A DNA stretch of 26,465 nucleotides from a bacterium (GCA_030648695.1 JAUSHG010000036.1:1-26465), one strand, 5' to 3'. Counted from the stretch's first letter, positions 1 through 26,465 are shown. Notes: a model not told the origin generated them from the sequence alone. Numbers and translations: made by a program.

Positions 1-283
1 CCTCAAGCAGGACGAAGATATTCGGCGAATCCGCAATGTCACCAAGGCGCTCTACAAACGCTTCCTTCCACTCCTCATTTTCAAAAAGAGTGGTGCAGTA
101 GACAATGTGCGTTTTGGAAAACAATCCCTGTCCGCCAATCAGTTCATCCAGGGTATTCACATCTGACTCAGCGGAGATGCGAAACACTTCCGCTTCAGGA
201 TATTTTTTTGCCAGCATGTCCAAAAGCGCGCCTGCTTTTTCGCGCGCTTTGTCCCTGTCAGAGCCGTAGAAGAAGTAAATCAT
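1..283 (-). CDS. holA: DNA polymerase III delta subunit-like protein, N-terminal part (runs off the window start)
   Basis: Manual translation from ATG at 283: MIYFFYGSDRDKAREK...LIGGQGLFSKTHIV...DSPNIFVLLE. The N-terminal 'IYFFYG-D' and 'GLF' motifs resemble HolA. Not in the ORF track. Confidence 0.65.
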   Translation of the reverse strand, partial: MIYFFYGSDRDKAREKAGALLDMLAKKYPEAEVFRISAESDVNTLDELIGGQGLFSKTHIVYCTTLFENEEWKEAFVERLGDIADSPNIFVLLE

Positions 284-366
284 AGCTTATAGCTTATAGC
301 TGTTAGCTTTTAGAAACAAGACGATTCTTTTGTTAAGAGTGAACAGTTAATAGTTAAGAGTTAAAA
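283..366. repeat. Two unpaired heptamer-repeat arms (AGCT family 283-313, TTAAC family 332-366) between polA and holA
   Basis: tagctta-tagctta-tagctgt-tagcttt-tag and gttaaga...gttaata-gttaaga-gttaaaa. Confidence 0.8.
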
Positions 367-376
367 ACTGGAATGC

Positions 377-2857
377 TTATTCCAGTTTTTTCATCTCATC
401 CCAGTTTTTGCCGACACGCGCCTCAACCTCAATCGGCACCCCTTTTGACAGTGCCTCGGGAAGCACTCCCTCCATAATCTCCTGTATCTTTTTTCCGATT
501 TTTCCGGCCTGCCCTTCCTTCACCTCAAAGACGAGTTCATCATGCACCTGCAGAATGAGTGACGCCTCTTTTCCTAGTTTTTCTTTTTGGAAATACCCAT
601 CCACGCGCACCATGACAAGCTTGATGAGGTCTGCGGCTGTTCCCTGCAGAGGAGCGTTAATGGCCGCCCGCTCGGCTGCGGCGCGGATGAAAGGAATATG
701 GGAGCGAATGGCCTCATGATACCGTCGTCTGCCAAACAGCGTCTCGGTATATCCCGATGCCGCGGTATCCTTCTTTACTTTCTCCAAGTACGCGGCGAGC
801 TCGTGAAAATCACTAAAGTACTTGTCGTAATACTGCTGTGCTTCCTCTCGCGACACCGCGCTCCCGCCTTCCTGAAGGGCCTGACGCAGAGAATTCACTC
901 CCATGCCATAGAGCATGCCGAAGTTAATAACCTTGGCCTGCCGCCGCATGTCCTTGGTTACCTGTTCGGGGGGAACATCAAATACCTGCGCGGCCACCGC
1001 CGTGTGCACGTCCTCTCCACGCTTGAAAATCGAGATAAGTTTCGTATCGCCCGAAAGAATAGCCGCCACACGAAGTTCAATCTGCGAATAATCAAGGGAA
1101 AGGAGCACATTCCCCTTCTCGGCAACAAAGGTCTTGCGGATGCGCCTGCCAAGCTCTGTCTGAATGGGAATGTTCTGGAGGTTCGGATTCTGCGAGGCCA
1201 TGCGGCCAGTTGTGGAGCCGGATGAGAGAAGTTGTGCGTGCAAACGCCCGTCCTTCCCCACCATCGCAGGGAGTGTATCTATATAAGTAGAAAGTAATTT
1301 TTGAAACTCGCGGTACTCCAGAATTTCCTTGATAATCGGGTGCATCTCACGCAACTTCTCAAGTTCGCTTTCGCGCGTGGAGAGTGCGCCGCCTGCGGTC
1401 TTCTTCTGCCGGAGGGGCTTCAATCCCATTTTCACAAACAGTACTTCGCCCAATTGTTTGGGAGAGTTGATGTTGAACTCCGCTCCGGCAAGCTTCCATA
1501 TTTCTTTTTCGCGCTTGCTTAACTCACGGTGGTACTCTTTGGAAAGTGAAAAAAGGTACGCCACATCAAGCGCAACTCCCCGCTCGTTCATCCGCTTCAA
1601 TACCGGCAGAAGTGGTCGCTCTATTTCCTCAAACACACGTGCCAGATTCCGCTTTTGTATCTCCGCAAATACGGTCTCACGCGCCTTATTCCAATCACGC
1701 GTTTGTGCGAATCCCAAGATATCGTCCAAGGTCGGGTTGGTGAGGTTTGAGTTGATAAGCCAGAGCGCCACCGCAGTTTCCGCCAATTCCTCTTCGGAAA
1801 TTCCTGTGGCTGCCAATACGTCATTAAAAGACGCCTGCTTGGCCTCCCCTCCTTTCAAAGGAGGGGATTGAGGGGTGGTGGTAGAGGTGGAATTAAGTGG
1901 GGTGTTGTTTTGAATTGCCCCCACCGCACTCTTCAACCTCTCTCCGAGAGTCCGAAACTCAAGTTCGGTAAAAAGCGCCTCGGCTTTCGGGAGGTCAATG
2001 CTTTCACACCAGAGTTTTGCCGGAAACGAAAAGGCAATGGGCGCATCACGCCTGATGGTCCCCAACAGTTTGCTAAACTCTGCATCTTCTTTTCCTTTTT
2101 CAAGTAAGCCAACCACGCGCTCTTTGATGCCCGCTTTGAGTAGGGTGACGCGGTCTTTTTTGAGCGTTTTATAGATGTTCTCAATTGAACCAAATTTTTG
2201 AATCAGCTCGGTTGCGGTCTTGTCCCCGATGCCGGCAATGCCTTTGATGTTGTCAGACGGGTCGCCTTTGAGCCCTTTAAAATCCGGAAGCAACTCCGGA
2301 GGAAACCCATAGCGCACATTGACGGCCTCCTCATCATAGAGAATCGTGTCATTGATGCCTTTTTTGAGCGTAAATACCTGCACCCGTTTGTTGTCCACGA
2401 GTTGCAGTGTGTCCATGTCGCCGGAGGCGATGATAATGGCGGCTTCGCCACCTTTGACCTTTGACCTTTGACCTTTGACCTGCTCTACGATGGTGCCGAG
2501 AATGTCGTCCGCTTCAAATCCTTCCTTGTCGTAAATCGGAATGCCAAACACGCCAAAGATTTCGCGCGAACGAATCATCTGCGACACCAGCGTCTCATCA
2601 GCTTTTGGGCGTCCCGCCTTGTAGTCCTTGTAGGCCTCATGCCGAAAGGTCTTCTTCGGCAAATCATAAGCCGCGGCAATATAGTCGGGATGGAAAGTGG
2701 AAATAATTTTGATGAGCATGGCGGCAAGGCCGTAGAGACCGCCTGTCGGCTCGCCGCGGGAGTTGCTAAATTCAGGCAGGGCATGATACGCGCGGTGCAG
2801 TATGGCGTGCGCGTCTATGAGTACGAGCTTCTTGGGTTCCGGCTCCTTTTTTGCCAT
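377..2857 (-). CDS. polA: DNA polymerase I (5'-3' exonuclease plus polymerase domains, no clear 3'-5' exonuclease domain)
   Basis: N-terminal LVLIDAHAILHRAYHALP, EADD, GDMD, GDPSDNIKGIAGIG motifs; polymerase motifs TGRMASQNPNLQNIP, DYSQIELR, AKVINFGMLYG, QVHDELV. Confidence 0.98.
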   Translation of the reverse strand: MAKKEPEPKKLVLIDAHAILHRAYHALPEFSNSRGEPTGGLYGLAAMLIKIISTFHPDYIAAAYDLPKKTFRHEAYKDYKAGRPKADETLVSQMIRSREIFGVFGIPIYDKEGFEADDILGTIVEQVKGQRSKVKGGEAAIIIASGDMDTLQLVDNKRVQVFTLKKGINDTILYDEEAVNVRYGFPPELLPDFKGLKGDPSDNIKGIAGIGDKTATELIQKFGSIENIYKTLKKDRVTLLKAGIKERVVGLLEKGKEDAEFSKLLGTIRRDAPIAFSFPAKLWCESIDLPKAEALFTELEFRTLGERLKSAVGAIQNNTPLNSTSTTTPQSPPLKGGEAKQASFNDVLAATGISEEELAETAVALWLINSNLTNPTLDDILGFAQTRDWNKARETVFAEIQKRNLARVFEEIERPLLPVLKRMNERGVALDVAYLFSLSKEYHRELSKREKEIWKLAGAEFNINSPKQLGEVLFVKMGLKPLRQKKTAGGALSTRESELEKLREMHPIIKEILEYREFQKLLSTYIDTLPAMVGKDGRLHAQLLSSGSTTGRMASQNPNLQNIPIQTELGRRIRKTFVAEKGNVLLSLDYSQIELRVAAILSGDTKLISIFKRGEDVHTAVAAQVFDVPPEQVTKDMRRQAKVINFGMLYGMGVNSLRQALQEGGSAVSREEAQQYYDKYFSDFHELAAYLEKVKKDTAASGYTETLFGRRRYHEAIRSHIPFIRAAAERAAINAPLQGTAADLIKLVMVRVDGYFQKEKLGKEASLILQVHDELVFEVKEGQAGKIGKKIQEIMEGVLPEALSKGVPIEVEARVGKNWDEMKKLE
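1845..1879. repeat. Palindromic REP-like insert in frame within polA (encodes TPQSPPLKGGE)
   Basis: tcccctccttt-c-aaaggagggga is a perfect inverted repeat at 1845-1867, in the inter-domain linker. Confidence 0.75.
2451..2481. repeat. Perfect 7-bp tandem repeat (cctttga x4 plus cct) inside polA
   Basis: Read directly; encodes VKGQRSKVKG. Confidence 0.95.
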
Positions 2858-2861
2858 GCGC

Positions 2862-3317
2862 TCATTCTAGCATTCTCCCGCTTCTGTGGAATTCAATACT
2901 TCTTGTATGGTCATCTACAAATTCAAACTGAAGCTTGATGTGGTCAGGAGGTAGTAGGTCCGCGACACGCTCGGCCCATTCAATGAAGATAAGATTTTTA
3001 GGGTCGGTGAGGAGCTCGGAGAAGCCGAGTTTGCGCAGGTCGTCTGCGTTTTTCAGACGATAGGCATCTACATGTATCAGTTTCTGAAAACTTTTAACTT
3101 TTAACTTATAACTTTTAACTATCCAGAAGGTGGGGCTGGAAATACGTTCAGAAATGCCGAGGGCGCGGGCGGCGGCCTGCACGAAGGTGGTTTTGCCGGC
3201 TCCCAAGTCGCCGTAAAGACCGACCACCGTAGCTTGCGACGAGCTCGGTTTTAACCCCGATACGAAATCTGAAGCGGCCTGTTGAAAGGATTCAAGATTA
3301 TGGATTTGTATGGGCAT
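2862..3317 (-). CDS. tsaE: tRNA threonylcarbamoyladenosine biosynthesis ATPase
   Basis: LYGDLGAGKTTF Walker A, SPTF, HVDAYRL and IEWAE motifs. Confidence 0.96.
   Translation of the reverse strand: MPIQIHNLESFQQAASDFVSGLKPSSSQATVVGLYGDLGAGKTTFVQAAARALGISERISSPTFWIVKSYKLKVKSFQKLIHVDAYRLKNADDLRKLGFSELLTDPKNLIFIEWAERVADLLPPDHIKLQFEFVDDHTRSIEFHRSGRMLE
3089..3120. repeat. Heptamer tandem repeat (aactttt-type x4.5) inside tsaE
   Basis: aactttt-aactttt-aacttat-aactttt-aact; encodes KSYKLKVKSF. Confidence 0.9.
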
Positions 3318-3328
3318 AATACCTACTA

Positions 3329-3409
3329 TCTAATACCAAATCTCGAAAAATACCAAATAAAGAACATGCAATGTTGACGCTTTTTCGAGATTAGATATTG
3401 GATATTAGA
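3329..3409. repeat. Empty inverted-arm element (AATAC/AATATC family) between the divergent tsaE and ATPase genes
   Basis: aatctcgaaaaa (3339-3350) pairs perfectly with tttttcgagatt (3381-3392); flanked by taatacc and gatatt repeats. Confidence 0.75.
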
Positions 3410-3441
3410 GCTTCCACTCATTGTGCTACAATGTGGTGGTT

Positions 3442-5112
3442 ATGCCTACCTTTGATGATGAAAAGCAGGAAAAAGAGCTTTCCGAAATTAAACTTCAGGA
3501 AGAGGAAGACCTTATTCGTCTGCTTGCCCAGAAAAACGGACTCCCCTACATAGACCTCGTTCCGGTGCCGATTGAGACCGATGCCTTGCGCCTTCTGCCC
3601 GAATCCGAAGCACGCGAAGTCAAGATTGCTTCCTTTGCCGTAAACGGGAAAAAGGTGGGTGTGGCGGTATTCTCTCCGAACAAAGAAGGAGTAACCGCGG
3701 CGATAGAGAAAATCACGAAAGCCGGATTTACTCCGACCCTCTATATGGCCTCAACCCGCAGCTTGGAGAAAGCGTGGAGCCGCTACAAGGAACTTTCCGA
3801 AATGACCGTAACGCACGAGGGTGAAGTGGGGCTTGAAAGCGGCATCATTGCCGACACCGCGGCCAAGGTACAGACGCTTCCCGAACTTGTGCCGCTGCTT
3901 GGAGGAATCCTCAACGACAAAGACCCAAACCGCGTCTCCCGTTTTGTGGAGCTCATTTTGGGAAGTGCTATCGCTCTTGACGCTTCCGACATTCACATTG
4001 AGCCCGAGGCCTCCTCTGTGCGCCTGCGGTTTCGCCTAGACGGCATTCTGCAGGAGGTATTGAGTTTTGAGCGTGCCATCTATGCACTCGTGAACTCGCG
4101 CGTCAAACTGCTTGCCGGACTTAAACTAAACGTCAAATCCGAAGCGCAAGACGGACGTTTTAGCGTCAACCTCAAGGACACCGATATTGAAATCCGCGTG
4201 TCTCTGCTTCCCGGGGCATACGGCGAATCCATCGTACTTCGCGTCCTCAACCCCAAAACCATCGCGGTTCCTTTTGAAGATCTGGGGCTTCACCCGCGAC
4301 TACTTGAAGTGGTGGAACAGCAGATAGCCAAGCCGAACGGAATGCTGCTTACGACCGGTCCGACCGGAAGCGGCAAGACCACCACGCTCTACGCATTTTT
4401 GCGTAAAATCTACAGTCCCGGAGTCAAGGTCATCACCATTGAAGACCCGATTGAGTATCACCTCGCGGGTATTGTGCAGACGCAGACCGACAAAGACAAG
4501 GGCTACACCTTTGCCCAAGGCCTTCGCTCGGCACTGCGGCAGGACCCGGACGTTTTGATGGTCGGTGAAATCCGCGACGAAGAAACCGCCGAAGTCGCCA
4601 TCAACGCCTCGCTCACCGGCCACCTCGTATTCTCCACCCTGCATACCAACAACGCCGCCGGTTCGTTCCCGCGTTTGATTGACTTGGGAGTCAACCCGAA
4701 GGTCATCAGTTCTGCCGTAAATCTTTCACTCGCCCAACGGCTCGTGCGCAAGCTCTGCGCCGCGTGCAAAGAAGAAACAACGCCGACCGAGAAAGAAAAA
4801 GCGCAGATTGATACGGTGCTGCGCGACATGCCGAACACATTCGCTCCGAAAGAAATTGGAAAAATATGGAAGCCGAAGGGCTGTGAGAAATGCAACAACA
4901 CCGGATACAAAGGCCGCACCGGTGTCTATGAAGCCATACAGGCGGATGCCGCTATTGAAAAGATAATCCGCGAAAACCCGAGCGAACGCGAAATTGCCGC
5001 CGCCGCGCGCCCACAGGAAATCCCCACCATGCAGGAAGACGGCGTCCTTAAGGTGCTCTCCGGCATTACTTCGCTTGAGGAACTGGAGCGGGTGGTGGAT
5101 TTGACCAAATAA
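3442..5112 (+). CDS. GspE/PulE/PilB-family type II secretion / type IV pilus assembly ATPase
   Basis: Walker A GPTGSGKTT, TIEDPIEY, LRQDPDVLMVGEIRD, TGHLVFSTLHTN, zinc-binding CAAC and CEKC. Start moved to ATG 3442, which follows TGcTACAAT. Confidence 0.93.
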   Translation: MPTFDDEKQEKELSEIKLQEEEDLIRLLAQKNGLPYIDLVPVPIETDALRLLPESEAREVKIASFAVNGKKVGVAVFSPNKEGVTAAIEKITKAGFTPTLYMASTRSLEKAWSRYKELSEMTVTHEGEVGLESGIIADTAAKVQTLPELVPLLGGILNDKDPNRVSRFVELILGSAIALDASDIHIEPEASSVRLRFRLDGILQEVLSFERAIYALVNSRVKLLAGLKLNVKSEAQDGRFSVNLKDTDIEIRVSLLPGAYGESIVLRVLNPKTIAVPFEDLGLHPRLLEVVEQQIAKPNGMLLTTGPTGSGKTTTLYAFLRKIYSPGVKVITIEDPIEYHLAGIVQTQTDKDKGYTFAQGLRSALRQDPDVLMVGEIRDEETAEVAINASLTGHLVFSTLHTNNAAGSFPRLIDLGVNPKVISSAVNLSLAQRLVRKLCAACKEETTPTEKEKAQIDTVLRDMPNTFAPKEIGKIWKPKGCEKCNNTGYKGRTGVYEAIQADAAIEKIIRENPSEREIAAAARPQEIPTMQEDGVLKVLSGITSLEELERVVDLTK

Positions 5113-5153
5113 CCAATATCAAATACCAAATCTCGAAAAATTGACATTTCTTA

Positions 5154-5247
5154 ATGTCATCCCCGTGGCTAAAGCCCGATGGGCTCGCCCGTTCAGGGAA
5201 ACGGGGAACCAGATTAAACTGGATTCCCGCTTTCGCGGGAATGACAT
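5154..5247. repeat. REP-like palindrome doublet (GTCAT...ATGAC) carrying a nested ~30-nt insert
   Basis: atgtcatccccgtg-[insert]-gaaacggggaaccag-attaaa-ctggattcccgctttcgcgggaatgacat; the termini atgtcat and atgacat are inverted. Confidence 0.8.
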
Positions 5248-5360
5248 AGGACTGCCGTTTTTAGATAGGCGAAATTGAAATTGACTTACTCAAAATTAAA
5301 TGCCGCTCTGCTAACTATACGTTGCACCTTCCACTGCGTTGCGTAGGATAGGAGAAGTAG

Positions 5361-5618
5361 ACCCCGCACCAATCCAAAACGGATTGATACGGGGTGAAGG
5401 ACAGGAACCTCCAAGCAATCACTTTCAATATAAATACCAAAAGCGAACGCCAGTCCTAAGGGGTGCTTCAGAGATTCGCTTGCGCCAATTCCAAAGCATC
5501 CTCGAAAAGGTATTTGAATCCCGAAGTACATCGGGACGATTGCTTAGAGGTTCATATCCTGCACCAAACCCTGTTTGGCTTCTTTACAAAAGGCCCGCAG
5601 GATATATATCCTACGGAT
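5361..5618 (-). ncRNA. Candidate structured non-coding RNA with a long rod-like fold; family unassigned (6S-like is one possibility)
   Basis: A 28-bp stem 5393-5420/5538-5565 has 26 pairs on the minus strand. Inner stems at 5432-38/5509-15 and 5441-47/5475-81; flanking hairpins at 5361-5395 and 5595-5616. G-U pairs favour the minus strand, and a consensus promoter lies immediately upstream. Confidence 0.5.
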
Positions 5619-5624
5619 AATAGT

Positions 5625-5653
5625 AGTATAGCATACAAAAAATCTAATGTCAA
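5625..5653 (-). promoter_or_regulatory. Near-consensus sigma70 promoter
   Basis: Minus strand reads TTGACA-17 nt-TATACT, with an extended -10 TG (tgcTATACT). Confidence 0.8.
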
Positions 5654-5707
5654 ACATTTTCTGCAAAAAGGCCTTGCAGAGCCCTCCCTTGCAGAATCTA
5701 GAAGCAC

Positions 5708-6727
5708 ATGACCACCCCTTTGCCAAAACAGAAAGAGGAAGCGGCTCTCAGCCCGAAGCCGGACGCTTTTTTGGACCAGACGCTCCGTCCGTCCCGTTTT
5801 GAAGAGTATGTGGGACAAAAAACACTCAAGGAAAACCTCAGAATCCTCCTGACCGCGGCCGGGGAGCGCGGCCACACGCCGGAACACCTGCTGTTTTACG
5901 GCCCGCCCGGACTCGGCAAAACCACGCTTGCACATTTAATTGCCAAGGAGATTAATGCGCAGATAAAAATAACGTCCGGCCCTGCAATAGAGCGTGTGGG
6001 CGACCTCGCCTCAATTCTCACCAATTTAGGAGACGGGGACATCTTGTTTATTGATGAGATTCACCGCTTAAGCAAACAAATTGAGGAAATCCTCTACCCT
6101 GCCATGGAGTCGGGGCGGTTGGATATCATTATCGGCAAAGGCCCCTCGGCTCGCACCGTACAGCTGGAACTGCCTCCTTTCACACTCATTGCCGCCACCA
6201 CCCGCATTGCGCTTCTCTCCTCTCCCCTGCGCTCGCGCTTCTCCGGAGGCGTCTTCCGTTTGGAGTACTATACACACGAAGAGATAGAGGAGATTTTGAA
6301 GCGCTCGGCTACAATCCTCCAAGTTCCGATTGAAGAGGGAGCCATGAAAGAAATCGCGCTTCGTAGCCGCTTCACGCCGCGCACTGCAAATTATCTTCTG
6401 AAGCGCGCGCGCGATTTTGCGCAGGTGCGCAAGGGAAAGGTAACCAAAGAATCGGTCAAAGAGGCACTCAAGCTGCTCGGGGTTGACGAACTGGGGCTCC
6501 ATCCGTCTGACCGCGCGCTTCTGTCCGTACTGATTGAGAAATTCGCCGGCGGGCCGGTGGGACTTAACACACTCGGAGCGGCTCTCTCTGAAGAGGAGGC
6601 GACTATTGAGGAGGTCCATGAGCCGTATCTGATTCAATTGGGACTGTTGGAGCGCACCCCGCGCGGCCGCAAAGCCACGCCCAAGGCCTATGAACATCTG
6701 GGTGGCAAAAAACAGACATTGGTGTAA
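5708..6727 (+). CDS. ruvB: Holliday junction branch migration helicase RuvB
   Basis: [55 protein letters not shown]. Confidence 0.98.
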
Positions 6728-7378: not shown

Positions 7379-7396
7379 GAAATTCAGCATTTGTGA

Positions 7397-7492
7397 ATTT
7401 TCAAGTTTCAATTCTCAATTTTCAATCAATGACTAAATTAAACAATTCAAAAACTAAAGACGGATTTGAAAATTGTAAATTGATAATTGATA
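7397..7492. repeat. Empty inverted-arm element (CAATT family) between yebC and ruvC
   Basis: caattttcaa (7416-7425) pairs with ttgaaaattg (7466-7475); both arms are degenerate 7-mer arrays. Confidence 0.85.
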
Positions 7493-7502
7493 CTTTGCGA
7501 GT

Positions 7503-12497: not shown

Positions 12498-12498
12498 T

Positions 12499-15318: not shown

Positions 15319-15323
15319 CTATT

Positions 15324-15398: not shown

Positions 15399-15548
15399 AT
15401 GAGCTTCACCTATAAACCAAAAAGGAAAAAAAGGGCGCGCACGCACGGATTCCGCTCCCGCATGAAGAGTGCAACCGGAAGAGCGGTACTCTCCCGCCGG
15501 CGCCGCAAAGGCCGCCACACACTGACCGCAAGCCGCAAGCGTACCTAA
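15399..15548 (+). CDS. rpmH: 50S ribosomal protein L34
   Basis: Manual translation [49 protein letters not shown]; canonical position between dnaA and rnpA. Confidence 0.97.
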
Positions 15549-15558: not shown

Positions 15559-15637
15559 TAACTATTAACCATTAACTTTTGACTTTTAACAGCCCGAAAA
15601 CTTTCTGTTAAAGGTTAATTGTCAAAAGTTAATAGTT
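15559..15637. repeat. Empty inverted-arm element (TTAAC family) between rpmH and rnpA
   Basis: taactattaaccattaacttttgacttttaacag pairs with ctgttaaaggttaattgtcaaaagttaatagttg. Confidence 0.85.
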
Positions 15638-16013: not shown

Positions 16014-16760
16014 ATGTTCGCCCTGCTTAAGAGTGTTTTCTATATTCCTCTCTATAACGCGCTCATTCTCCTCATAGGAAGGATGCCCGGTTTTGGAGCG
16101 GGCGGGGCGGTGATTCTCCTCACTCTGGCCATTAAAATCATTCTCTTTCCGCTTTCACAGCGCGCCTCAAAGTTCCAATTTGAGATGAAGGCGCATGAAG
16201 CCGAGCTGAACCGCATTAAGGAGCGCTTCAAGGGAAATCGCGAGGAGCAGGGCCGCGCCATACTCGCGTTCTACAAAGAGAAAGGCATCAACCCATTCAT
16301 GGGCATTTTGCCTGTGCTCATTCAAATTCCCATTGTTATCGGACTCTATTATGTGTTCTACAAGGGAGGATTGCCGGGGGTAAACGAAGAACTGCTCTAT
16401 TCGTTTGTCCCGGTTCCCCCCGTTGATATGCATTTTTTCGGGATAGACATCTCGGAAAAGAGCATACTGCTCGCGGTATTGACCGGCGCCTCGCAATTTT
16501 TGCAGGGGCATTTCGCCTCCCCTCCTCCGCCCGCACCAAGTTCGGGAAAACCCTCATTTCAGGAAGACCTTGCTAGGGGCATGCGGCTTCAGGTAAAGTA
16601 TGTTCTGCCTCTGATTATGGCCTTTGTGGCCTATCAGGTGTCGGGAGCGGTAGCGCTGTATTTTATTACGAGCAACCTGTTTACCGTTTGTCAGGAGCTC
16701 TACCTACGCAAGAAGTTTAAGAAGGAGGGACATCTGACGCATCGGGGAGCATCCGACTAA
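16014..16760 (+). CDS. yidC: Membrane protein insertase YidC/Oxa1 (short form)
   Basis: AVILLTLAIKIILFPL, YKEKGINP, LIQIPIVIGLY, ALYFITSNLF. Confidence 0.95.
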   Translation: MFALLKSVFYIPLYNALILLIGRMPGFGAGGAVILLTLAIKIILFPLSQRASKFQFEMKAHEAELNRIKERFKGNREEQGRAILAFYKEKGINPFMGILPVLIQIPIVIGLYYVFYKGGLPGVNEELLYSFVPVPPVDMHFFGIDISEKSILLAVLTGASQFLQGHFASPPPPAPSSGKPSFQEDLARGMRLQVKYVLPLIMAFVAYQVSGAVALYFITSNLFTVCQELYLRKKFKKEGHLTHRGASD

Positions 16761-16850
16761 TCCGAATGTTCCGAATATCCGAATGGTTACGAATGCAGTC
16801 CTTCTTATTCGCAGGTATTCGTATATTCGTAGAGATTCGTAATTCGTATT
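16750..16850. repeat. Empty inverted-arm element (CGAAT family) between yidC and jag
   Basis: A ccgaat array (16750-16795) and an attcgt array (16807-16850); the yidC stop lies in the first arm and the jag ATG follows the second. Confidence 0.85.
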
Positions 16851-16852
16851 GT

Positions 16853-17308
16853 ATGACTAACGAAGAAATCAAAAAAACAATACAAGAACTACTCTCCCGC
16901 ATGGAGATTGCCTGCGAGTCCGTAGAGTGTGTTGATGAGGATTCGGACCGGCGGCGCTTTTCAATCCGCACTCCCGATTCGCATCTTCTTATCGGGCCCA
17001 AAGGCGCACACCTGTTTGCGTTCAATCATCTGGTGCGAAAAATTGCCGGAAAAGGCGAGGAGGGCGAGTTTCTCTTCACGGTTGACGTGAACGACTATCA
17101 CGAAGCCGCCCGCGAACGCCTGCATGCGCTTGCAAAGGTGATGGGAGACCGCGCCCGGTCGTTTAAGGCGTCAGTGGAGCTGGAACCCATGTCATCCTAT
17201 GAACGGATGGTGGTGCACACGTTTTTTGAAAATGCAGGAGATATTAAGACCGAGTCAACCGGAGACGGGGAACGCCGGAGGGTGGTTATCAAATACACTG
17301 GAGAGTAA
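16853..17308 (+). CDS. jag: Jag/EloR/KhpB-like RNA-binding protein (KH plus R3H, no Jag_N domain)
   Basis: LLIGPKGAHL (KH GxxG), VDVNDY, MSSYERMVVH (R3H), TESTGDGERRRVVI. Start moved from 16766, which translates the repeat. Confidence 0.88.
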   Translation: MTNEEIKKTIQELLSRMEIACESVECVDEDSDRRRFSIRTPDSHLLIGPKGAHLFAFNHLVRKIAGKGEEGEFLFTVDVNDYHEAARERLHALAKVMGDRARSFKASVELEPMSSYERMVVHTFFENAGDIKTESTGDGERRRVVIKYTGE

Positions 17309-17325
17309 TGGTTAGGAGGAGCTCG

Positions 17326-17752
17326 TAGCTTCTTAGCTGATTAGCTTTTTAGGGAAGAAATCATCTTGTTAAGCATTCGCATCACTTCAAGAAGCAAGCT
17401 GTCAATTTTTTGCAAATCTAAACCCTTTCCCCAAGGCAAGCGACGTACAATTTCAAGCTGGGTTTCCAGTTCAGCTCCGGAACCGTAAGCAATTAATAGG
17501 AACTGACAAAACTCCTTTTTTCCTCCGCGACGCCTTCCTTCTGCAATGTTAGAGGGGATAGAAACTGAGGCGCGTTTCATTTGCGACGAAAGTCCGTACA
17601 GTTCACTTTTCGGAAATTGCTCAGTAAGGGCATATAATTCAATGACGGCGTCTATACCTTTCTGCCACACGATTAATTCTTTATATGAATGTATTTCCAT
17701 CACGGTTTTTTAATTTCCCTAATAAGCTAAAAAGCTACCAGCTAATAAGCTA
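17326..17752 (-). mobile_element. Filled inverted-arm element A (AGCT family) carrying a four-helix-bundle gene
   Basis: Arms 17326-17352 and 17727-17752 are near-perfect inverses. Mobility is inferred, not shown. Confidence 0.6.
17341..17700 (-). CDS. Four-helix-bundle protein (23S rRNA IVS-encoded / Avd-like family)
   Basis: SYKELIVWQK, FPKSELYGLSSQMKRASVSIPSNIAEG, AYGSGAELETQL. Confidence 0.92.
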   Translation of the reverse strand: MEIHSYKELIVWQKGIDAVIELYALTEQFPKSELYGLSSQMKRASVSIPSNIAEGRRRGGKKEFCQFLLIAYGSGAELETQLEIVRRLPWGKGLDLQKIDSLLLEVMRMLNKMISSLKS

Positions 17753-18946
17753 ATCTTCAAATTCCACGCTCCAAAGCGTTCCGTCATTTTTGTTGGTAAA
17801 GATAAGGAACTTTTCATCAGGCGAGAGTTGCGGATGAACGAGGTCAATGGAGTCGCCCCCTTCACTGCTTATATCAAGTATCCGCTCCCCCACTCCGGTT
17901 TCCGCATCTATTTGCCATAGTTCATCGGTAAAAGAGATAACTCCCTGATACCAGGCATCGGGGTAGCTTCCTCCGGGAAGAGTGAGCGGAACCCCGCAGT
18001 AAATATCTTCATTTGATTTTGCCCAGACGCACTTTTCGGGAAGTGTTTTGTGCTGCAGGGCCGAGGCCTTGTTTGTTTTTCGGTCAAGCATCTGCAGGAT
18101 AATTCCGCCGCCCGAACTTTCGGAAAAGAGTATCCGCGACAGGTTTCCGTCGGGAAGCGCCGTGAGACCCGCCACATCGCGAATAAGCGGCTCCATTTCC
18201 CCGCCCCCGCTTGGAACCGACACGAGCATCCCGTCTGAAATAGCCGATGGCTTGGTGAGGAATGCAATACGGGAGGATGTAGTCCAGAGCGGAATCCATT
18301 CCCGAAGCGGAGACGCAAACATCTGTATTTTCCCGCTTCCGTTAAAGGCCGCGCGGACTCCCACTCCTCGCCCTCCTTCTTCGCGCATGTAGATAAGTTC
18401 CTTTCCGTCCGGCGAGAGCGCCACCTCCCGTATATTTCCGGGGAGGAAGGTCCCTTCAAGGGTTCCTTCGCCCTCTGCTTTTGGCTTGAGCGTTGCGGAA
18501 TAGGTCTGAATGGTTTCATTGTCTTCGCCAAGGTAGCGGGCAAGTACGGAGGCCCCGTCTTTCCGCCACAGCGCCTCATAGATTTTGGGTATCGTCGTAT
18601 TGGTCAGCCGCCGCACCACCCCGCCGGTTGCCGCAATTTCATACGTGTTGCCCGTGGCGCGGTCCAGGTACCGGACGCGGACGCTTTCATCCCGCCCTCC
18701 GACAACGGCGCCCGCTATCGGAGTAAGTGTTAGGCGGCGCAGTATGGGGCCTCCGCGCGTATCCGAGGGCAGTGCTACCGGTTCTTCCGTTTCCTCTTCA
18801 AATCCACCTTCTTCCGTTTCAGGAAACTCCCCCTCAATCGGCAGTTCGGCTTCAGGAGTTCGGAAAAAGAAAAAGTAAATAAGCGCCGCAATGACTGCGA
18901 GCACAATAACCGATACAACAATGGTGACGGTAGTTTTTCGCGACAT
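17750..18946 (-). CDS. Membrane-anchored hypothetical protein, probable beta-propeller
   Basis: N-terminal TM segment, acidic linker, repeated ALSPDGKEL and LSPDEKFLIF TolB/WD-like motifs. Confidence 0.75.
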   Translation of the reverse strand: MSRKTTVTIVVSVIVLAVIAALIYFFFFRTPEAELPIEGEFPETEEGGFEEETEEPVALPSDTRGGPILRRLTLTPIAGAVVGGRDESVRVRYLDRATGNTYEIAATGGVVRRLTNTTIPKIYEALWRKDGASVLARYLGEDNETIQTYSATLKPKAEGEGTLEGTFLPGNIREVALSPDGKELIYMREEGGRGVGVRAAFNGSGKIQMFASPLREWIPLWTTSSRIAFLTKPSAISDGMLVSVPSGGGEMEPLIRDVAGLTALPDGNLSRILFSESSGGGIILQMLDRKTNKASALQHKTLPEKCVWAKSNEDIYCGVPLTLPGGSYPDAWYQGVISFTDELWQIDAETGVGERILDISSEGGDSIDLVHPQLSPDEKFLIFTNKNDGTLWSVEFED

Positions 18947-21164: not shown

Positions 21165-21620
21165 CTACGCCGAAGGGCCTTTCGGAGGGGTTCGCCCTTT
21201 TGATGCTACGGTCTGCACCGCCCGCTCTATTTTCCCGCCGATAAGAGGAACACCTCGAAGTGCGGAAGACCCGTCATTGATAACCCACGCATAGGCAATG
21301 TCAAATGTCCATGCGGGAAATACCCCGCCCGTTCCGGCATCTACTGCAGTAGCACCCAGAACACTAAGGGTTAAACGCCAATCCAGCATCCCTTTCATAA
21401 AGAAGAGAAAATAGAGAGCTCCACCCACTGCGAGGTCAACAACAGTGTTAATAGGCAAGCCGATTCCAGTAGCCCCCACTCCCATTTGGACGAGGTCAAG
21501 GAAGATGGCGGCAAGAAAGAGCATGTACCAGCTTCCGGGTGAAAGTTTTGGTTCGGGTTTCCGTGGCGGCGGAGGAAGCGGTCCGCGCGGTCTGTTTTGT
21601 TGTGAGGGTTGAGGAGACAT
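21165..21620 (-). CDS. Hypothetical membrane protein
   Basis: Pro-rich N-terminus followed by several hydrophobic segments; lies in the operon directly after the VirB4-like gene. Confidence 0.75.
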   Translation of the reverse strand: MSPQPSQQNRPRGPLPPPPRKPEPKLSPGSWYMLFLAAIFLDLVQMGVGATGIGLPINTVVDLAVGGALYFLFFMKGMLDWRLTLSVLGATAVDAGTGGVFPAWTFDIAYAWVINDGSSALRGVPLIGGKIERAVQTVASKGRTPPKGPSA

Positions 21621-21693
21621 AGCTGGAAGCTTATTAGCTGGTAGCTTTTTAGCTTTTTAGAAATTTCCTAACAAGCTAATCAGCTACAAGCTA
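21620..21693. repeat. Empty AGCT-family element (cargo-less counterpart of elements A and B)
   Basis: agcttattagctggtagctttttagctttttag-aaattt-cctaacaagctaatcagctacaagcta. Confidence 0.9.
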
Positions 21694-23511
21694 TTGGTTG
21701 CCTTCGGCTGCTTTCAGCTCTGCCTTCGCCGCTTTGATGGCGAGCAACTGCGAGGGGTCGGAGGTGATAATTTGGTCTTCGGTGTAGGAGGCGATAACTT
21801 TGATTGCCACGTGTTTGAGACCTACAAAGAAGAGCCCCTCTCCCACATCGGACTCAAGAAGCAGAAATTTTTCTTCGTCCGTGAGATTGAAAATCTGCTG
21901 GAGACGGTCTACGACCGTTGGCGATTGTTTGAGAAGTATCTGCATGGAGGAGTTGGTGAGAATGGGAAGCCCGTAGGGGGATTTGAGGAAGTCGTCCACG
22001 TCCTGTGTAATCGTGGCAAGACCGAAATAATATTTGCGGCCGCGTTTGGCGAGCCCGAGCAGGAAGGAGGCCGTATCTTCGCTCTTCATGAGCCACCACG
22101 CCTCGTCAATCACCATGAGGCGCTTTTTGAGCTCCCGCCGGATAGCGTTCCAGATAAAGTGCGTGATGAGGTACATGGCTGCGGGCTTGAGCTCATCTTC
22201 CATGTCGCGGAGGGAAAATACAATCAAATTGGCATTGATATCAATATTTGAGGGTTGGTTGATGAATCCCGCCCATGTTCCGCGTGTGTATTTGGACAGG
22301 CGGGTAACGAGCGACTCCCCTCCCCGCATGCCGGCGAGTACCAGTTCAAAGTCGGAGAGAAGCGGCGGCGGAATCTTTGCAAAATCAGAATCGGCGGTAA
22401 TGTCTTTGAGTGCGTAGGTTTCTGTTATAGCGCGGTCAATAATCGCATCTTCTTCGGGAGACAGTCCTCCGAGCATAATGCGGAAAAGCCCGACCAGATT
22501 GATGATGTTTGAGCGCAGGACGTCGGTGGGCGACTCATCTTCGCGCGGAGTCGGAAGTTCAAAGGGGTTGATGTGGTGGGATGAGTTGAGTGAAATGTTG
22601 AAGTATTTACCGCCTACGGCTTCGGCCAGATATTCATACTCGCGTTCGGGGTCAAGCACGATAACGTCAGTGCCAAACATGAGTGAGCGGAGAATCTCCA
22701 GCTTCATCATGTAGGATTTACCCGCGCCCGACTTGGCGAACACCACGGAATTAAAGTTTTCAAGCGAAAAGCGGTCAAAGAGAACGAGGGAAGCATTGTG
22801 CCGGTTGATGCCGTAGAGCACCCCTTTGTTTGAGGTCAGGTCAAAGGAAACAAACGGAAAGACACTTGAGAGGGGCGAGGAGTTGAGTTTGGTATGCACC
22901 AGAAGTTCGTCGTTTCCGAGGGGCATGGTACTCCTAAAGCCCTGTTCCTGCTGGAAGAGCGCGGGTTTGAGAAGCACGAGCTTGGCATCCAAAATGCCGC
23001 GCACCTCGGTTTCCACCTTTTCAAGCTCGGTTTCGTTGTCGGCGTAAATCGTAACGTACATTCCCACTTCAAATATCTTTTCATTGGCCTGCATGAGGTC
23101 ATCGCGCAGTTTTTCCAAATCCTGATACGCAGTATCGAGCGCAGGGTCGCGCACGATGCCCTTGTGTTCGCGTTCAATCATCTGGCTTTGTACCTCTGCA
23201 ACCTTCTTCTGGAATTTACGCAGGACTTTGCCGGTATCAAGCGGATGAATGAAGATGGAAATATCAAACACTTTGTCCAGATTGATGACCGGAGCAAACC
23301 AGCCCTCCGTGAGGTAGCGCGGGTAGGAAATGACGAAAAAGGTGCGGGTTATTTTTCCGCTCACATTGAGCGACTTCGGCGTTACCTTAAGCGCAGCAGG
23401 CGCAATAACATCCTGCAGTTCAAGGGCGCCGGATTGGTAAATCTGCTCGGGCAAAAAGTCCGAGATGTCATCCTGCTTCTTTTTTGGTTTTAAAAAATCC
23501 AATATGCCCAT
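21691..23511 (-). CDS. VirB4/TraE-like ATPase
   Basis: Walker A AKSGAGKS, VLDPEREY, INPF, Walker B MVIDEAW, KRGRKY, TQDV. Confidence 0.92.
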   Translation of the reverse strand: MGILDFLKPKKKQDDISDFLPEQIYQSGALELQDVIAPAALKVTPKSLNVSGKITRTFFVISYPRYLTEGWFAPVINLDKVFDISIFIHPLDTGKVLRKFQKKVAEVQSQMIEREHKGIVRDPALDTAYQDLEKLRDDLMQANEKIFEVGMYVTIYADNETELEKVETEVRGILDAKLVLLKPALFQQEQGFRSTMPLGNDELLVHTKLNSSPLSSVFPFVSFDLTSNKGVLYGINRHNASLVLFDRFSLENFNSVVFAKSGAGKSYMMKLEILRSLMFGTDVIVLDPEREYEYLAEAVGGKYFNISLNSSHHINPFELPTPREDESPTDVLRSNIINLVGLFRIMLGGLSPEEDAIIDRAITETYALKDITADSDFAKIPPPLLSDFELVLAGMRGGESLVTRLSKYTRGTWAGFINQPSNIDINANLIVFSLRDMEDELKPAAMYLITHFIWNAIRRELKKRLMVIDEAWWLMKSEDTASFLLGLAKRGRKYYFGLATITQDVDDFLKSPYGLPILTNSSMQILLKQSPTVVDRLQQIFNLTDEEKFLLLESDVGEGLFFVGLKHVAIKVIASYTEDQIITSDPSQLLAIKAAKAELKAAEGNQ

Positions 23512-23946
23512 AGCTTGTAGCTTCTTAGCTGGTTAGCTTTTTAGGGAAGAAATCATTTTGTTAAGCATCCGCATCACTTCAAGAAGCAAACTATCAATCT
23601 TCCGAAAATCTAAATCTCTTCCCCAAGGCAGACGACGAACGATTTCGAGCTGCGTTTCTAGTTCTGCACCCGAACCATAGGCAATTAGCAAGAACTGACA
23701 GAATTCCTTTTTACCTCCGCGTCGCCTTCCCTCCGCAATGTTTGAGGGAATAGATACGATGGCACGTTTCATCTGGGATGCAAGTCCGTACAACTCACTT
23801 TTGGGAAATTGTTCAGCAAGAGCATATAGTTCAATTACACCTTCTATACCCTTCTGCCATACGATTAACTCTTTATACGAGTGTATTTCCATAACAATTT
23901 TCTTTATTCTTTCCTAATAAGCTAAAAAGCTACCAGCTAAGAAGCT
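23511..23946 (-). mobile_element. Filled inverted-arm element B (AGCT family) carrying a four-helix-bundle gene
   Basis: Arms 23519-23544 and 23922-23946 form a 25-bp stem with one bulged base. Mobility is inferred. Confidence 0.6.
23533..23892 (-). CDS. Four-helix-bundle protein, paralog of 17341-17700 (110 of 119 aa identical)
   Basis: Direct alignment of the two translations shows 9 substitutions. Confidence 0.92.
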   Translation of the reverse strand: MEIHSYKELIVWQKGIEGVIELYALAEQFPKSELYGLASQMKRAIVSIPSNIAEGRRRGGKKEFCQFLLIAYGSGAELETQLEIVRRLPWGRDLDFRKIDSLLLEVMRMLNKMISSLKS

Positions 23947-24590
23947 GTTACTGGGTGTTCGGTTTCCCCGGGATTAAACAATTTGTAAAACAACTCAACC
24001 ACCTCTTCGGTGCCGAGCTGTGCCACGCGCACGCCGGTGCGCACGAGCCCCTGCTCCACCACCGACACCCTCTGTTCAAGCTGAATCTTGTGTTCCTCAA
24101 ACCCCCTGTTCCCGCTTCCCTCCGGAGCCGATTGTTTCCCCGGAAGCATCCGGCTCAATTGCGCGCCGATTTTTCCCCCGCTTTCCGAAACCTGCAAAAT
24201 GGCCGGTGTGTAGGGTACCACTACGAAAAAGAGCTTGTTCATGATGTTGGTGTTCTCGGTGAACTTCCGGATAAATCCGATATATTCCTGCGTCTGGATT
24301 TTGAGCAGTTCATTGGTCTGTTTTCCAAGCCGCTCCTGCAGAAACTCCAAATAGGGTTTGACATCAAACCTCCGTGATTCCACGACAATCTGCACCGAGA
24401 AATCCAGCGCGTTTAAAAAACTCTGGAACTGCGCAATGATGGCCTGCTGGTTCTCTTCGGACTTGAGTGCAAAGTTGATGGAGGAGGCCATGAGTACAGC
24501 CCGAAGACCGCCGTCTTTGAGGATGACGATGCCGTCCCGAATTTCCCTTATTTTGACGAAATCCTGCGATGCTTTAGCTTTTATTGGCAT
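23937..24590 (-). CDS. Conserved VirB4-associated protein (typical partner between PrgI and the ATPase)
   Basis: SQDFVKIREIRDGIVILKDG, SSINFALKSEENQQAII, FQSFLNALDFSVQI; operon position. Confidence 0.75.
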   Translation of the reverse strand: MPIKAKASQDFVKIREIRDGIVILKDGGLRAVLMASSINFALKSEENQQAIIAQFQSFLNALDFSVQIVVESRRFDVKPYLEFLQERLGKQTNELLKIQTQEYIGFIRKFTENTNIMNKLFFVVVPYTPAILQVSESGGKIGAQLSRMLPGKQSAPEGSGNRGFEEHKIQLEQRVSVVEQGLVRTGVRVAQLGTEEVVELFYKLFNPGETEHPVTAS

Positions 24591-24599
24591 ATGAATAGA

Positions 24600-25098
24600 T
24601 ACGAGAAACGAATCAATATCCGAATAGTCCGAATGTTCCGAATCAACGAATGGATACGAATACTATTATACGTTATTTCTTTTGTTTTCGCGGGTCTAGA
24701 CGCAGAATTCTGATTGGTTTTACATAGCGACAGCGGAAATTAACAAGCAAGCCAAGCTCCACGCCGCTGGCCTGCAGGTAATTTTGAATTTGCCGGTAGT
24801 CGTTGCCTAACAGGACTCTCTTTGCTTTCAACTCCAATGCCACACATCCTTCAATGAGAAAATCTATGATATTTCCAGAATCACCGATGCGGATTTCTCT
24901 CTGATATTCAATTGATTTTTCCTTTAGTTTCTTTTCAAGGCAGTCACCATATTGTTTTTCTTTTCCATAGGGTCCTATCTCATTATGTACATCAAAACAA
25001 ATACCGGTAATATCGTAAGACAAATCCGGGTAAAGAACGTGCGGTTGTGTCTTATTCGCAGCCATTCGGATTATTCGGACAATTCGTTAATTCGGATG
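24600..25098 (-). mobile_element. Filled inverted-arm element (CGAAT family) carrying a GxxExxY gene
   Basis: A ccgaat array (24600-24663) and an attcgg array (25063-25098); 24618-24635 matches the inverse of 25063-25080 at 16 of 18 positions. Confidence 0.55.
24673..25065 (-). CDS. GxxExxY-family protein (PD-(D/E)xK nuclease-like)
   Basis: [10 protein letters not shown] (variant of GxxExxY), [33 protein letters not shown]. Confidence 0.88.
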
Positions 25099-25500: not shown

Positions 25501-25502
25501 GG

Positions 25503-25919
25503 TAGTTATAAGTTAGAAGTTTGTAAGTTATAAGTTCTTTCTAAGAAAGCTGACATATCCGCTTATCATTTTTATCAACTCAACATGTCTCTCAATAATT
25601 TCCCCATTTTTGTAGAATTCCTTTTCAAGGCATACCTCAAGATTTCGTCTCGTTTCCTCTGCTTCGCATTTGGCAGTATCATTTATTATTCGTATTTTTT
25701 CCTTGATGGACTGTTTATTATACGCTTCGGCGATATTGTTAGTAGTAGAGGATGAAGACCTCCGTAACTGGTCAACGCTTCTATACTTTTCGTCCTCAGG
25801 GAATTGCTTTGTTAAATGGAAAACCTCAAGCTCCAATTCTTTTGCCCGCGTATATATCTTTAAATTTTCAAGACCCGTTGCCATAACTTACAAACTTAAA
25901 ACGTATCAACTTTCAACTA
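25503..25919 (-). mobile_element. Filled inverted-arm element C (AACTT family) carrying a divergent four-helix-bundle gene
   Basis: aagtttgtaagttat (25517-25531) is the perfect inverse of ataacttacaaactt (25883-25897), within longer degenerate arrays. Confidence 0.55.
25528..25884 (-). CDS. Four-helix-bundle protein (divergent member)
   Basis: LENLKIY, FPEDEKYRSVDQLRRSSSSTTNNIAEAY, KCEAEET. Confidence 0.85.
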   Translation of the reverse strand: MATGLENLKIYTRAKELELEVFHLTKQFPEDEKYRSVDQLRRSSSSTTNNIAEAYNKQSIKEKIRIINDTAKCEAEETRRNLEVCLEKEFYKNGEIIERHVELIKMISGYVSFLRKNL

Positions 25920-26465
25920 TCCAGAGGTTCTCTGTACGGGTCTAAGGTATATCGCGTATCGGTTTTCGGCATGCTCATGGGCTCGTTTAATTTCCGCTCC
26001 GTTAAGTTTCTATTCGCGTTAACTTCTTCCTCTCCCTCCTCCCCTCCTGTTGTACCCCGTAGTGAGCTCGGCTCTACTACTGGGGCCTGAGGAGGGGTGC
26101 CGAGTCCGCGAGGCGGGGTGGTGGGAGAAGAGGCCTGCCCGTTCAAGTTTTGCTTGCCCGAAATAAATCCATCCGGGGTTTGAACGGGCGGGGCAAAAGT
26201 TGTTCGGGGAGATTGAGGGGGAGTCGGCAAGGGCGATGGCGTTGCAGGAAGAGAGGGAGTAGTGATTTGTGTATTTTCAAGTTCTTTATTTTGATATTTT
26301 TCTATATTTGGTATTCGGGATTCGGTATTACTATTTTGGGCAGGCGGTACCTGCCCGTTCAAATTCGTCTGCGAATTTGCCCGGGTCCACCCCGTGGGAC
26401 CTACGTTAGTTTTAAGTGATAAGTTTGAAGTTGTAAGTTGAGATGGAGGAGGCGTAATTTCTCTG
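25913..26465 (-). CDS. C-terminal part of a hypothetical protein (Pro/Thr-rich, ends DPYREPLDS); runs off the window end
   Basis: The frame is open from 26464 (REITPPPSQLTTSNLSLKTNVG...) to the stop at 25913, so the TTG at 26362 is probably not the start. Confidence 0.7.
   Translation of the reverse strand, partial: REITPPPSQLTTSNLSLKTNVGPTGWTRANSQTNLNGQVPPAQNSNTESRIPNIEKYQNKELENTQITTPSLPATPSPLPTPPQSPRTTFAPPVQTPDGFISGKQNLNGQASSPTTPPRGLGTPPQAPVVEPSSLRGTTGGEEGEEEVNANRNLTERKLNEPMSMPKTDTRYTLDPYREPLDS

Follow-up and report, generated by a model that had tools for sequence, protein, structure and literature searches.

Heptamer-armed palindromic elements with and without small cargo genes in a small bacterial genome: a putative population of selfish insertion elements

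The DNA analyzed here (GCA_030648695.1 JAUSHG010000036.1:1-26465; hereafter the window, that is, the whole stretch of 26,465 nucleotides) is a complete 26.5-kb contig (C42) of the assembly that we denote G000 (584 kb, 50.5% GC, 91 contigs, 89% complete), a typical small genome of the Candidate Phyla Radiation (CPR) type from groundwater metagenomes; other genomes are likewise denoted by G and a number. The window carries polA, tsaE, pilB, ruvB, yebC, ruvC, a class I tRNA synthetase gene, the PBP1 gene, dnaN-dnaA, rpmH-rnpA-yidC-jag and an operon resembling those for type IV secretion systems (T4SS), with prgI and with VirB4 encoded as two genes. Between these genes, and in some cases within them, lie short arrays of tandem repeats with a unit of about 7 nt (heptamer arrays) that form inverted pairs, the two arms of a hairpin, with either a short loop or a small cargo gene between them. 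An earlier note made from the window had described such elements and read them as mobile cassettes or cassettes like intervening sequences. Here we show that the paired inverted arrays at gene junctions are real, with at least 13 pairs in the window, that the presence of arrays follows that of the cargo genes across genomes, and that the elements are candidates for a single population of selfish palindromic insertions.

Paired heptamer arrays in the window

The survey of the window combined Tandem Repeats Finder (TRF; 37 short-period rows, nearly all at gene borders), an independent inverted-repeat search and a read-out of every intergenic spacer; the array periods of 7-9 at the positions given below come from TRF, and the inverted pairing from the separate search. 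Three of the pairs surround a four-helix-bundle gene (PF05635) and one a GxxExxY gene (PF13366), in agreement with the four elements with one small gene each that had been described before. The filled elements and their cargo are as follows.

17322-17757, minus strand: element A, filled; AGCT-type arms at 17322-17356 and 17715-17757 (inverted repeat I12)
17341-17703, minus strand: cargo of element A, four-helix-bundle gene, 120 aa (PF05635, 1.2e-34; TIGR02436)
23512-23946, minus strand: element B, filled, copy of A; cargo gene at 23533-23892 (PF05635, 4.8e-33)
25504-25911, minus strand: element C, filled; AAGTT/AACTT-type arms (inverted repeat I10)
25528-25884, minus strand: cargo of element C, divergent four-helix-bundle gene (PF05635, 3.3e-21)
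24591-25098, minus strand: GxxExxY element, filled; CGAAT-type arms (inverted repeats I13 and I24)
24673-25065, minus strand: GxxExxY (PD-(D/E)xK-like) gene (PF13366, 5.5e-22; TIGR04256)

Elements A and B can be aligned over their full length, with the first AGCT of one arm and the final AGCT of the opposite arm as the limits, and their flanks are unrelated; B lies between the genes for the N-terminal (23937-24590) and C-terminal (21691-23511) parts of VirB4. The two cargo proteins are 92% identical, the cargo DNA is 16.4% diverged (43 synonymous and 9 non-synonymous codon differences) and the arms are about 5% diverged, so that the protein and the arm sequence both appear to be conserved or homogenised. 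The idea of discrete, transposase-less cassettes that resemble intervening sequences (IVS) and have gene-less relatives is upheld: A and B form a single unit, sharply delimited, and the arms belong to it. The arms of element A contain the stop codon of the upstream gene and the last codons of the cargo, and the 33-nt 5' arm of the GxxExxY element has the prgI stop TAG at one end and the cargo ATG at the other.

Beside the four filled elements, the window holds at least seven gene-less hairpins. These and the remaining arrays outside conserved genes are listed here; entries without a strand assignment are marked as unstranded.

21620-21693, unstranded: AGCT-type hairpin without a gene, flanked by a 151-aa gene and the virB4 C-part (-16.8 kcal/mol, z -4.3)
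16751-16851, unstranded: gene-less CGAAT-type hairpin at the yidC-jag junction (DNA fold z -2.0)
15316-15390 and 15560-15637, unstranded: TTAAC/GTTAA-type hairpins (inverted repeats I1-I4, I6 and I9; z -2.7 and -4.3)
15399-15548: rpmH, between the two TTAAC/GTTAA-type hairpins (L34 Pfam match)
15194-15219: solo array near the two rpmH hairpins
7396-7495, unstranded: gene-less CAATT-type hairpin at the yebC-ruvC junction (inverted repeat I5), a member of the 53-array CAATT family
3323-3408, unstranded: hairpin between the divergent tsaE and pilB (inverted repeat I7; fold z -4.9)
5113-5141, unstranded: third copy of the tsaE-pilB hairpin arm, right after the pilB stop and inverted relative to 3381-3408
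12397-12498, unstranded: AAGTT-type hairpin whose inner stem is GC-rich, between the convergent PBP1 gene and dnaN (-22.3 kcal/mol, z -5.0)
25885-26440, unstranded: AACTT and AAGTT arrays, an inverted pair around an unannotated 149-aa gene (25913-26362); TRF 26408-26440
284-366, unstranded: two unlike solo arms, AGCT type at 284-313 and GTTAA type at 332-364, not pairing (z -0.55)

Compared with shuffled sequence, the folds of most gene-less hairpins have z-scores of -2 to -5 (-1.4 for 7390-7500). The arms of the hairpin at 21620-21693 match those of elements A and B. At the yidC-jag junction, the yidC TAA (16758-16760) lies within an arm and the jag ATG, at 16853, follows the arm; here and at the prgI/cargo junction, the arms indeed begin at the upstream stop and end at or near the next start, as had been stated. 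That the elements lie at junctions and enclose either small cargo or a short loop holds for many of them but not for all, given that ordinary genes are bracketed too and that arrays also occur inside polA and tsaE. The bracketed ordinary genes are pilB (3421-5112), owing to the arm copy at 5113-5141, rpmH and the virB4 C-part, which, like pilB, are flanked by consecutive hairpins of the same family, and the 149-aa gene. Nor do neighbouring elements regularly use different families, as the earlier note had it: they often share one, as in the three AGCT elements within 6.6 kb and the two TTAAC hairpins around rpmH. The region 284-376, taken at first for a hairpin element, resolves into the two unlike arms of the AGCT and GTTAA types.

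Cargo genes and arm families across genomes

The link between the small genes and the arms extends well beyond the window. We assembled 82 PF05635 loci from 25 genomes, namely the 7 such genes of G000 and 75 fetched from 24 related genomes. With an inverted repeat score of at least 26 across the gene as the definition of bracketing, inverted arms bracket 88% of these loci compared to 5% of 472 other genes of G000; the PF13366 loci are bracketed by inverted arms in 21 of the 21 cases examined. Cargo genes without arms are thus very rare. In searches against Pfam and NCBIfam, the cargo genes matched only the PF05635/TIGR02436 and PF13366/TIGR04256 profiles and were not assigned to the GIY-YIG superfamily, and the profile matches of the cargo regions revealed no transposase within any filled copy. 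The period is 7 in 100 of 136 arms, and the median arm consists of 4.3 units, or 31 nt, which amounts to five cores. Among the four-helix-bundle genes with co-directional neighbours, 61 of 63 point the same way as these neighbours.

Arm type varies with the clade of the cargo protein. In the maximum-likelihood tree of the 82 proteins, there are clades with a common arm core across genomes and GTDB families (CTAATT, CAATT, ACCAA-type, AAGTT, AAAGTT, GCTGGA, ACGC, TAGCT/TAGGT, GTAGT and ATGAAT); the clade of the element C cargo, for example, has AAGTT arms in G001 and G013 as well. Across 2487 between-genome pairs, protein identity and arm similarity are positively correlated (Spearman 0.27), a value that was reached by none of 500 permutations. 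Similar arms occur in roughly half of the pairs at 60-80% protein identity and in all 9 pairs above 80%.

Genome-wide, TRF detected 229 period-7 arrays in G000 compared to 12 in the shuffled genome, an excess well above chance, along with 88 arrays of period 8 (15 in the shuffled genome) and 90 of period 9 (12 in the shuffled genome). The 94 inverted array pairs of G000 include about 56 with a loop shorter than 100 nt and about 30 around genes. Four large families (GTTAA/TTAAC, 57 arrays; CAATT, 53; CTAATT, 39; AGCT, 37) are accompanied by several small ones (AAGTT, ACGAAT, CCGAAT and AGTAGT), and for each of the large families, there is a four-helix-bundle gene within arms of that type. After removal of the arrays that adjoin cargo genes, the gene-less arrays were found to match the arms of their own genome's cargo more often than the arm sets of other genomes, in G000 (105 of 295 vs 8-10), in G013 (13 of 34 vs 2) and in G023 (12 of 34 vs 2-4). 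Furthermore, over 17 genomes, the density of period-7 arrays correlates with the number of PF05635 and PF13366 genes (Spearman 0.90), and genomes without either gene, species of the same genus included, have at most 3.3 arrays per 100 kb, except for one 31-kb sample.

Some individual loci depart from the common layout. At C25:650-1155 of G000, a four-helix-bundle gene lies between two direct copies of a TTAAC arm, followed by a loop and an inverted arm, so that here the cargo is beside the hairpin and not within its loop. On contig C2 of G000 (895-1503 and 5509-5808), a reverse transcriptase gene of the size seen in diversity-generating retroelements (357-aa frame) is located 4 kb from an arm-bracketed four-helix-bundle gene. 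In G039, weak PF05635 matches directly adjoin reverse transcriptase genes and resemble genuine Avd genes rather than those of the cassette type. In a groundwater metagenome resembling the source, the arms reach 10-20 times the contig depth of their flanks (16532-16914, 21511-21893 and 25724-26106); many metagenome contigs join the same arms to other loops, and the arm families are therefore common to many loci or organisms there.

Polymorphic junctions and in-frame insertions

Comparison of orthologous junctions, which the earlier note had proposed as a check, reveals filled, empty and absent states. The junction of the two VirB4 genes has no spacer beyond a few bases in G002, G018, G012 and G019; holds a gene-less hairpin, of various families, in G014, G009, G006 and G011; is filled with a GxxExxY gene in G008, G003, G017 and G010 and with a four-helix-bundle gene in G000; and in G005 contains a four-helix-bundle cassette nested in another hairpin. 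The junction after the virB4 C-part shows the same kind of variation among species. The earlier note had named three findings that would speak against its account, namely arm families that do not match within elements, cargo equally frequent without arms and a lack of filled/empty polymorphism; all three were looked for and none was found.

Arrays and entire cassettes also occur within protein-coding genes. The window holds two such solo arrays.

2450-2481, minus strand: perfect (GTCAAAG) x4.6 array inside polA, in frame, encoding VKGQRSKVKG after GTIVEQ
3089-3120, minus strand: GTTAAAA-type array inside tsaE, in frame, encoding IVKSYKLKVKS

At the same codon, polA orthologues have either four-unit arrays with other cores (AATTGAA, GTTAAAA, AAGTTAC, ATCACCA and AGCTAAA) or none. 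At the same site in tsaE, orthologues show other cores or in-frame hairpins, and each of the five units has G in the array of G000 (GTTAAAA) where that of G012 (ATTAAAA) has A. The lepA loop before NLIDTPGH has a basal form of 26-33 residues in 19 genomes, in 3 of which it is overwritten with heptamers at unchanged length; in 7 genomes, the loop contains complete in-frame hairpins of different families, without stops. A whole GxxExxY cassette is found in frame in recG of G003 and G004, between the helicase domains, and in lepA of G009, where the gene also contains, beyond the cassette, another hairpin of that family in frame. The lepA and recG cassettes have an arm-encoded linker of about 25 aa on each side, and Pfam detects only PDDEXK_3 between the host domains and no Hint domain around the inserts, which accordingly do not qualify as inteins. 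Insertion-bearing lepA alleles have a common right flank (CAAATTCAGAA), which suggests an old insertion site subject to repeated overwriting, perhaps through elements that inserted within hairpins already present. In G000, 59 of 308 arrays lie within open frames of at least 200 aa, the test by which coding arrays were counted (the longest-ORF calls misplace some starts and ruvC), and typically encode K-rich peptides such as KSQKLKV.

Origin and spread of the elements

The elements are discrete and fall into families, the cargo is linked to the arms, arrays and cargo genes co-occur across genomes, sites are polymorphic for presence and absence, insertions occur in frame, and location is limited by tolerance. 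With moderate confidence, we interpret these observations in terms of one genome-wide population of selfish palindromic insertion elements, in which families have cargo-bearing master copies and the elements are built like the open reading frame (ORF)-bearing IVS of 23S rRNA. Under this model, a family would be defined by its arm, of about 31 nt and typically four to five units of 7-8 nt that conserve a core of 4-5 nt; every family would have one or two master copies with a small gene in the loop, and the many gene-less hairpins and solo arms would be non-autonomous copies of the same family consensus. Copies would survive only at tolerated insertion points, either exactly between the stop and the start in packed operons, in sense orientation, such that the promoterless cargo is read through, or, in frame and stop-free, in the surface loops of proteins. 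The analogy to RAYT/REP and Ssn/NTS (see below) suggests that the cargo protein would recognise the arms of its own family and would be needed for their spread or retention.

Several points weigh against this model. The borders of A and B show no target-site duplication or direct repeat. Logan contigs of two DNA metagenomes yielded no excision or insertion junctions at the window locus, only arm-sharing contigs, and no movement was observed; the joints in these contigs have sides of 21-63 nt, most reaching little beyond the arm, and come from other loci or organisms with the same arms. To our knowledge, no cleavage or joining of nucleic acid is known for either cargo protein family, and we know of no catalytic fold in the four-helix bundle. 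Co-inheritance of arm and cargo as a unit would produce the correlation between clade and arm without any recognition of the arm by the protein. Related genomes are not independent samples; the contrast in arrays and genes recurs within a genus and between families. Finally, different array families occupy single polA, tsaE and lepA sites in different species, sometimes at unchanged protein length, which is not easily explained by simple copy-and-paste and hints at overwriting or de novo writing.

Three candidate activities were rejected. Retromobility through reverse transcriptase does not fit the distribution of PF00078, which is present in the array-poor G006, G018, G019 and G021 and was not found in the array-bearing G008, G037 and G040. 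Genes resembling PF01797, the Y1 (IS200/RAYT-like) transposase family, occur in genomes with and without arrays and have no flanking arrays in G000. Splicing of the in-frame cassettes by RNA ligase was dismissed as RtcB (PF01139) was not found in the 89%-complete G000.

The arm design invites a more specific proposal. The solved homologues of the A protein, 2GSC and 2RLD, were each deposited with five chains; Avd is a pentamer; and the arm has five cores, which together suggest one core per subunit. As a pure hypothesis, the active form of the four-helix-bundle protein may be a pentamer, comparable to TRAP on its triplet repeats. We put forward only tentatively, and with more doubt than conviction, that a pentameric four-helix-bundle reader of five cores, along with the GxxExxY nuclease in its own families, is the specificity factor of a transposase-free process that copies or writes heptamer arrays, including the overwriting of polA, tsaE and lepA loops; such a process would explain both the 23S rRNA IVS and the long-unexplained excess of bacterial heptamer repeats.

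An alternative is an origin in situ, whereby arrays and their inverted partners would arise by local slippage and fold-back synthesis without mismatch repair and only the small genes would be mobile, homing to the loops of hairpins that existed before. MutS (PF00488) was not found in the 89%-complete G000, which leaves room for slippage in array growth, and perfect four-unit arrays whose core at one polA codon differs between species, the parallel change of all tsaE units between G000 and G012, the lepA loops overwritten at unchanged length, the nested element of G005 and the C25 cargo, placed between direct arm copies and not in the loop, are all in line with such a scenario. We nevertheless consider it unlikely because dispersed copies have a common consensus, as illustrated by the A arm, B and the 21620-21693 copy, which cluster in one family, and by a 28-nt exact match between the A arm and this empty copy that was recorded when the window was first read. 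Moreover, the A/B homology extends through the arms and stops abruptly where they stop, arm type goes with the clade of the cargo protein from genome to genome, and cargo-free genomes are almost without arrays, although the cargo-free or cargo-poor G006, G011, G018 and G019 of the same genus have the repair repertoire of the lineage as far as sampled.

A function at the RNA level was assessed by folding and by arm comparison; a search for sequencing runs containing the sequence gave no RNA run. Hairpins fold equally well on the two strands (-30.7 kcal/mol sense and -31.3 kcal/mol antisense; sense lower in 24 and higher in 22), and stems contain similar numbers of G-U pairs (124 sense vs 113 antisense); we therefore see nothing to indicate that selection acts on the RNA. 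Within a family, complementarity between the two arms of a hairpin does not exceed that with the arms of other hairpins, and the own partner was the best one in 0/9, 0/12 and 0/8 hairpins, that is, there is no covariation between arms. Given that a hairpin's own arm was never the best partner, the arm differences represent uncompensated departures from the family consensus, as in families of repetitive extragenic palindromic (REP) sequences and miniature inverted-repeat transposable elements (MITEs). Two further lines were abandoned. Arm order appeared to be a polarity marker, with a 21/21 orientation bias, but is uninformative on transcription because the palindrome reads A-loop-A' on both strands; stops in three frames are not a general reason for period 7, with stops in at least two frames in 24/46 5' arms and 40/46 3' arms of hairpins.

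Accordingly, we think it quite improbable that the hairpins are RNA elements serving the host, as sites of mRNA processing by RNase III or of mRNA stability or as devices for the juxtaposition of stop and start, with the small genes as passengers. Arms that abut stop and start codons, cargo co-oriented with the operon (61:2), an RNase III gene in G000 and, as a matter of general knowledge, the same architecture as in the 23S IVS excised by RNase III would all suit this function; however, apart from the strand symmetry and the missing compensatory covariation, sister species lack any hairpin at the same junction, lepA and recG contain elements in frame, polA and tsaE contain solo arrays, and the presence of arrays depends on cargo genes rather than on operon structure. 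The same findings (no strand asymmetry, no covariation, in-frame copies without an operon junction) tell against the suggestion of the earlier note that the cargo is folded out to keep the flanking genes juxtaposed in the mRNA. Its view of empty hairpins as excised forms was not borne out either: the empty copies look like independent copies of the family consensus. As to RNase III itself, the sole Pfam match in G000 (C78:6470-6893) extends over positions 1-73 of a model with 128 and falls in a 200-aa open frame that begins immediately after a CTAATT hairpin; this gene is possibly interrupted or divergent.

A protein-plus-site system serving the cell, with arrays as dispersed binding or cutting sites and the flanking sites of the gene used for autoregulation, would share the logic of Neisseria Ssn/NTS, where the gene is flanked by the cognate repeat and repeats are abundant only with the gene (PMC11893778), and would suit a genome with type IV pilus and T4SS-like genes, but is very unlikely given several families per genome, each with its own protein, the patchy occurrence among species of one genus, the insertions inside essential genes, the cargo genes with internal stops and an overall pattern that looks like parasitism and decay, not conserved host function.

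The reading as selfish palindromic elements thus favoured has precedents that differ from each other in what they share with the elements described here. The IVS of 23S rRNA with an S23p ORF in Leptospira and Coxiella burnetii are, according to one account, sequences of a few hundred bp with a patchy distribution that are considered selfish, and as in the present elements, a PF05635/TIGR02436 protein is encoded in the loop of a long stem formed by terminal inverted repeats (PMC4990558). In contrast to these IVS, the G000 elements lie between or inside protein genes and not in a 23S rRNA helix, and they have arms of 7-nt units, many gene-less copies, several families per genome and a second cargo type, GxxExxY, in the same layout. 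The Ssn proteins are GIY-YIG single-strand nucleases with NTS/SRM repeats (Nat Commun 2025, PMC11893778); in Neisseria, Ssn and the NTS repeats modulate natural transformation, and as in our elements, a hairpin-forming repeat lies on either side of a small gene and, chiefly where a genome has that gene, runs to hundreds of copies (PMC11893778). The differences are the four-helix-bundle and PD-(D/E)xK folds, the periodic heptamer arms and the in-frame insertion seen here. The heptamer repeats of cyanobacteria, Beggiatoaceae and Bacteroidetes (short tandemly repeated repetitive sequences, STRR; TAACTGA) are described as direct repeats with a proposed role in translation; like the present arrays, they are intergenic, comprise two to six 7-nt units near starts, occur as several types per genome and are functionally unexplained (PMC4679880). 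A term search of that paper found no link to four-helix-bundle or GxxExxY genes and no hairpin or cassette architecture (PMC4679880).

The systems of REP sequences and their doublets (REPINs) with REP-associated tyrosine transposases (RAYTs), known as REPtrons, are close in organization, with many dispersed intergenic palindromes, a cognate gene that is present once and enclosed by its own repeat in inverted orientation, and covariation of the repeat family with the gene clade; unlike RAYTs, the cargo is PF05635 or PF13366 and not an HUH Y1 transposase. Derivatives of DDE transposons such as MITEs differ in that A and B have no target-site duplication and no filled copy has a transposase. The Rickettsia palindromic elements, reportedly described by Ogata and colleagues in 2000, are said to be palindromic repeats in frame in protein genes, encoding a peptide in a tolerant loop, without a transposase; the stop-free in-frame palindromes in conserved genes reported here (lepA and recG) are similar. 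The Rickettsia elements are said to have neither a cargo gene nor heptamer periodicity, whereas the present families carry genes and fill operon junctions.

In full-text literature searches, we found no description of a heptamer-armed hairpin or cassette architecture and no published link between these small genes and the unexplained bacterial heptamer repeats. Compared to the earlier note, the co-occurrence across genomes, the own-arm matching, the absence of RNA-type signatures, the in-frame lepA and recG states and the in-frame solo arrays of polA and tsaE are new. If the model is correct, two very large, functionally uncharacterised protein families, PF05635/TIGR02436 and PF13366/TIGR04256, would gain a testable partner in the periodic bracketing arms, and ORF-bearing rRNA IVS, bacterial heptamer repeats and palindromic insertions in genes would become one phenomenon. 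The elements occupy a sizeable share of the non-coding space of a 0.6-Mb genome and alter the essential proteins LepA, RecG, PolA and TsaE, and therefore matter for annotation, for assembly breaks and for the question of how minimal genomes tolerate parasites. Should the cargo proteins prove to read or cut short periodic words in a sequence-specific manner, they could become useful reagents, as the Ssn nucleases did.

Other features of the window were observed along the way. VirB4 is encoded as two genes throughout the genus, with an N-part of 217 aa and a C-part of 606 aa (window 21691-24590). In G001 (C1), G013 (C6) and G015 (C21), the match to the C-part is interrupted by about 2 kb within one open frame of about 1200 aa, which points to a large insertion in frame, perhaps an intein. 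Scanning the window for Rfam families and tRNAs gave no match, and the window contains no rRNA. The gene-poor 595-nt spacer at 5113-5707 (about 5361-5653), with a long inverted repeat (5393-5420/5538-5565), had been taken for a structured RNA; it matched no Rfam family and no tRNA or tmRNA. This pilB-ruvB spacer also contains a small GC-rich hairpin (GGATTCCCGC ... GCGGGAATGAC; window about 5215-5245), which is a second, non-heptamer repeat family and recurs in frame at the polA hot spot of G003 and G008.

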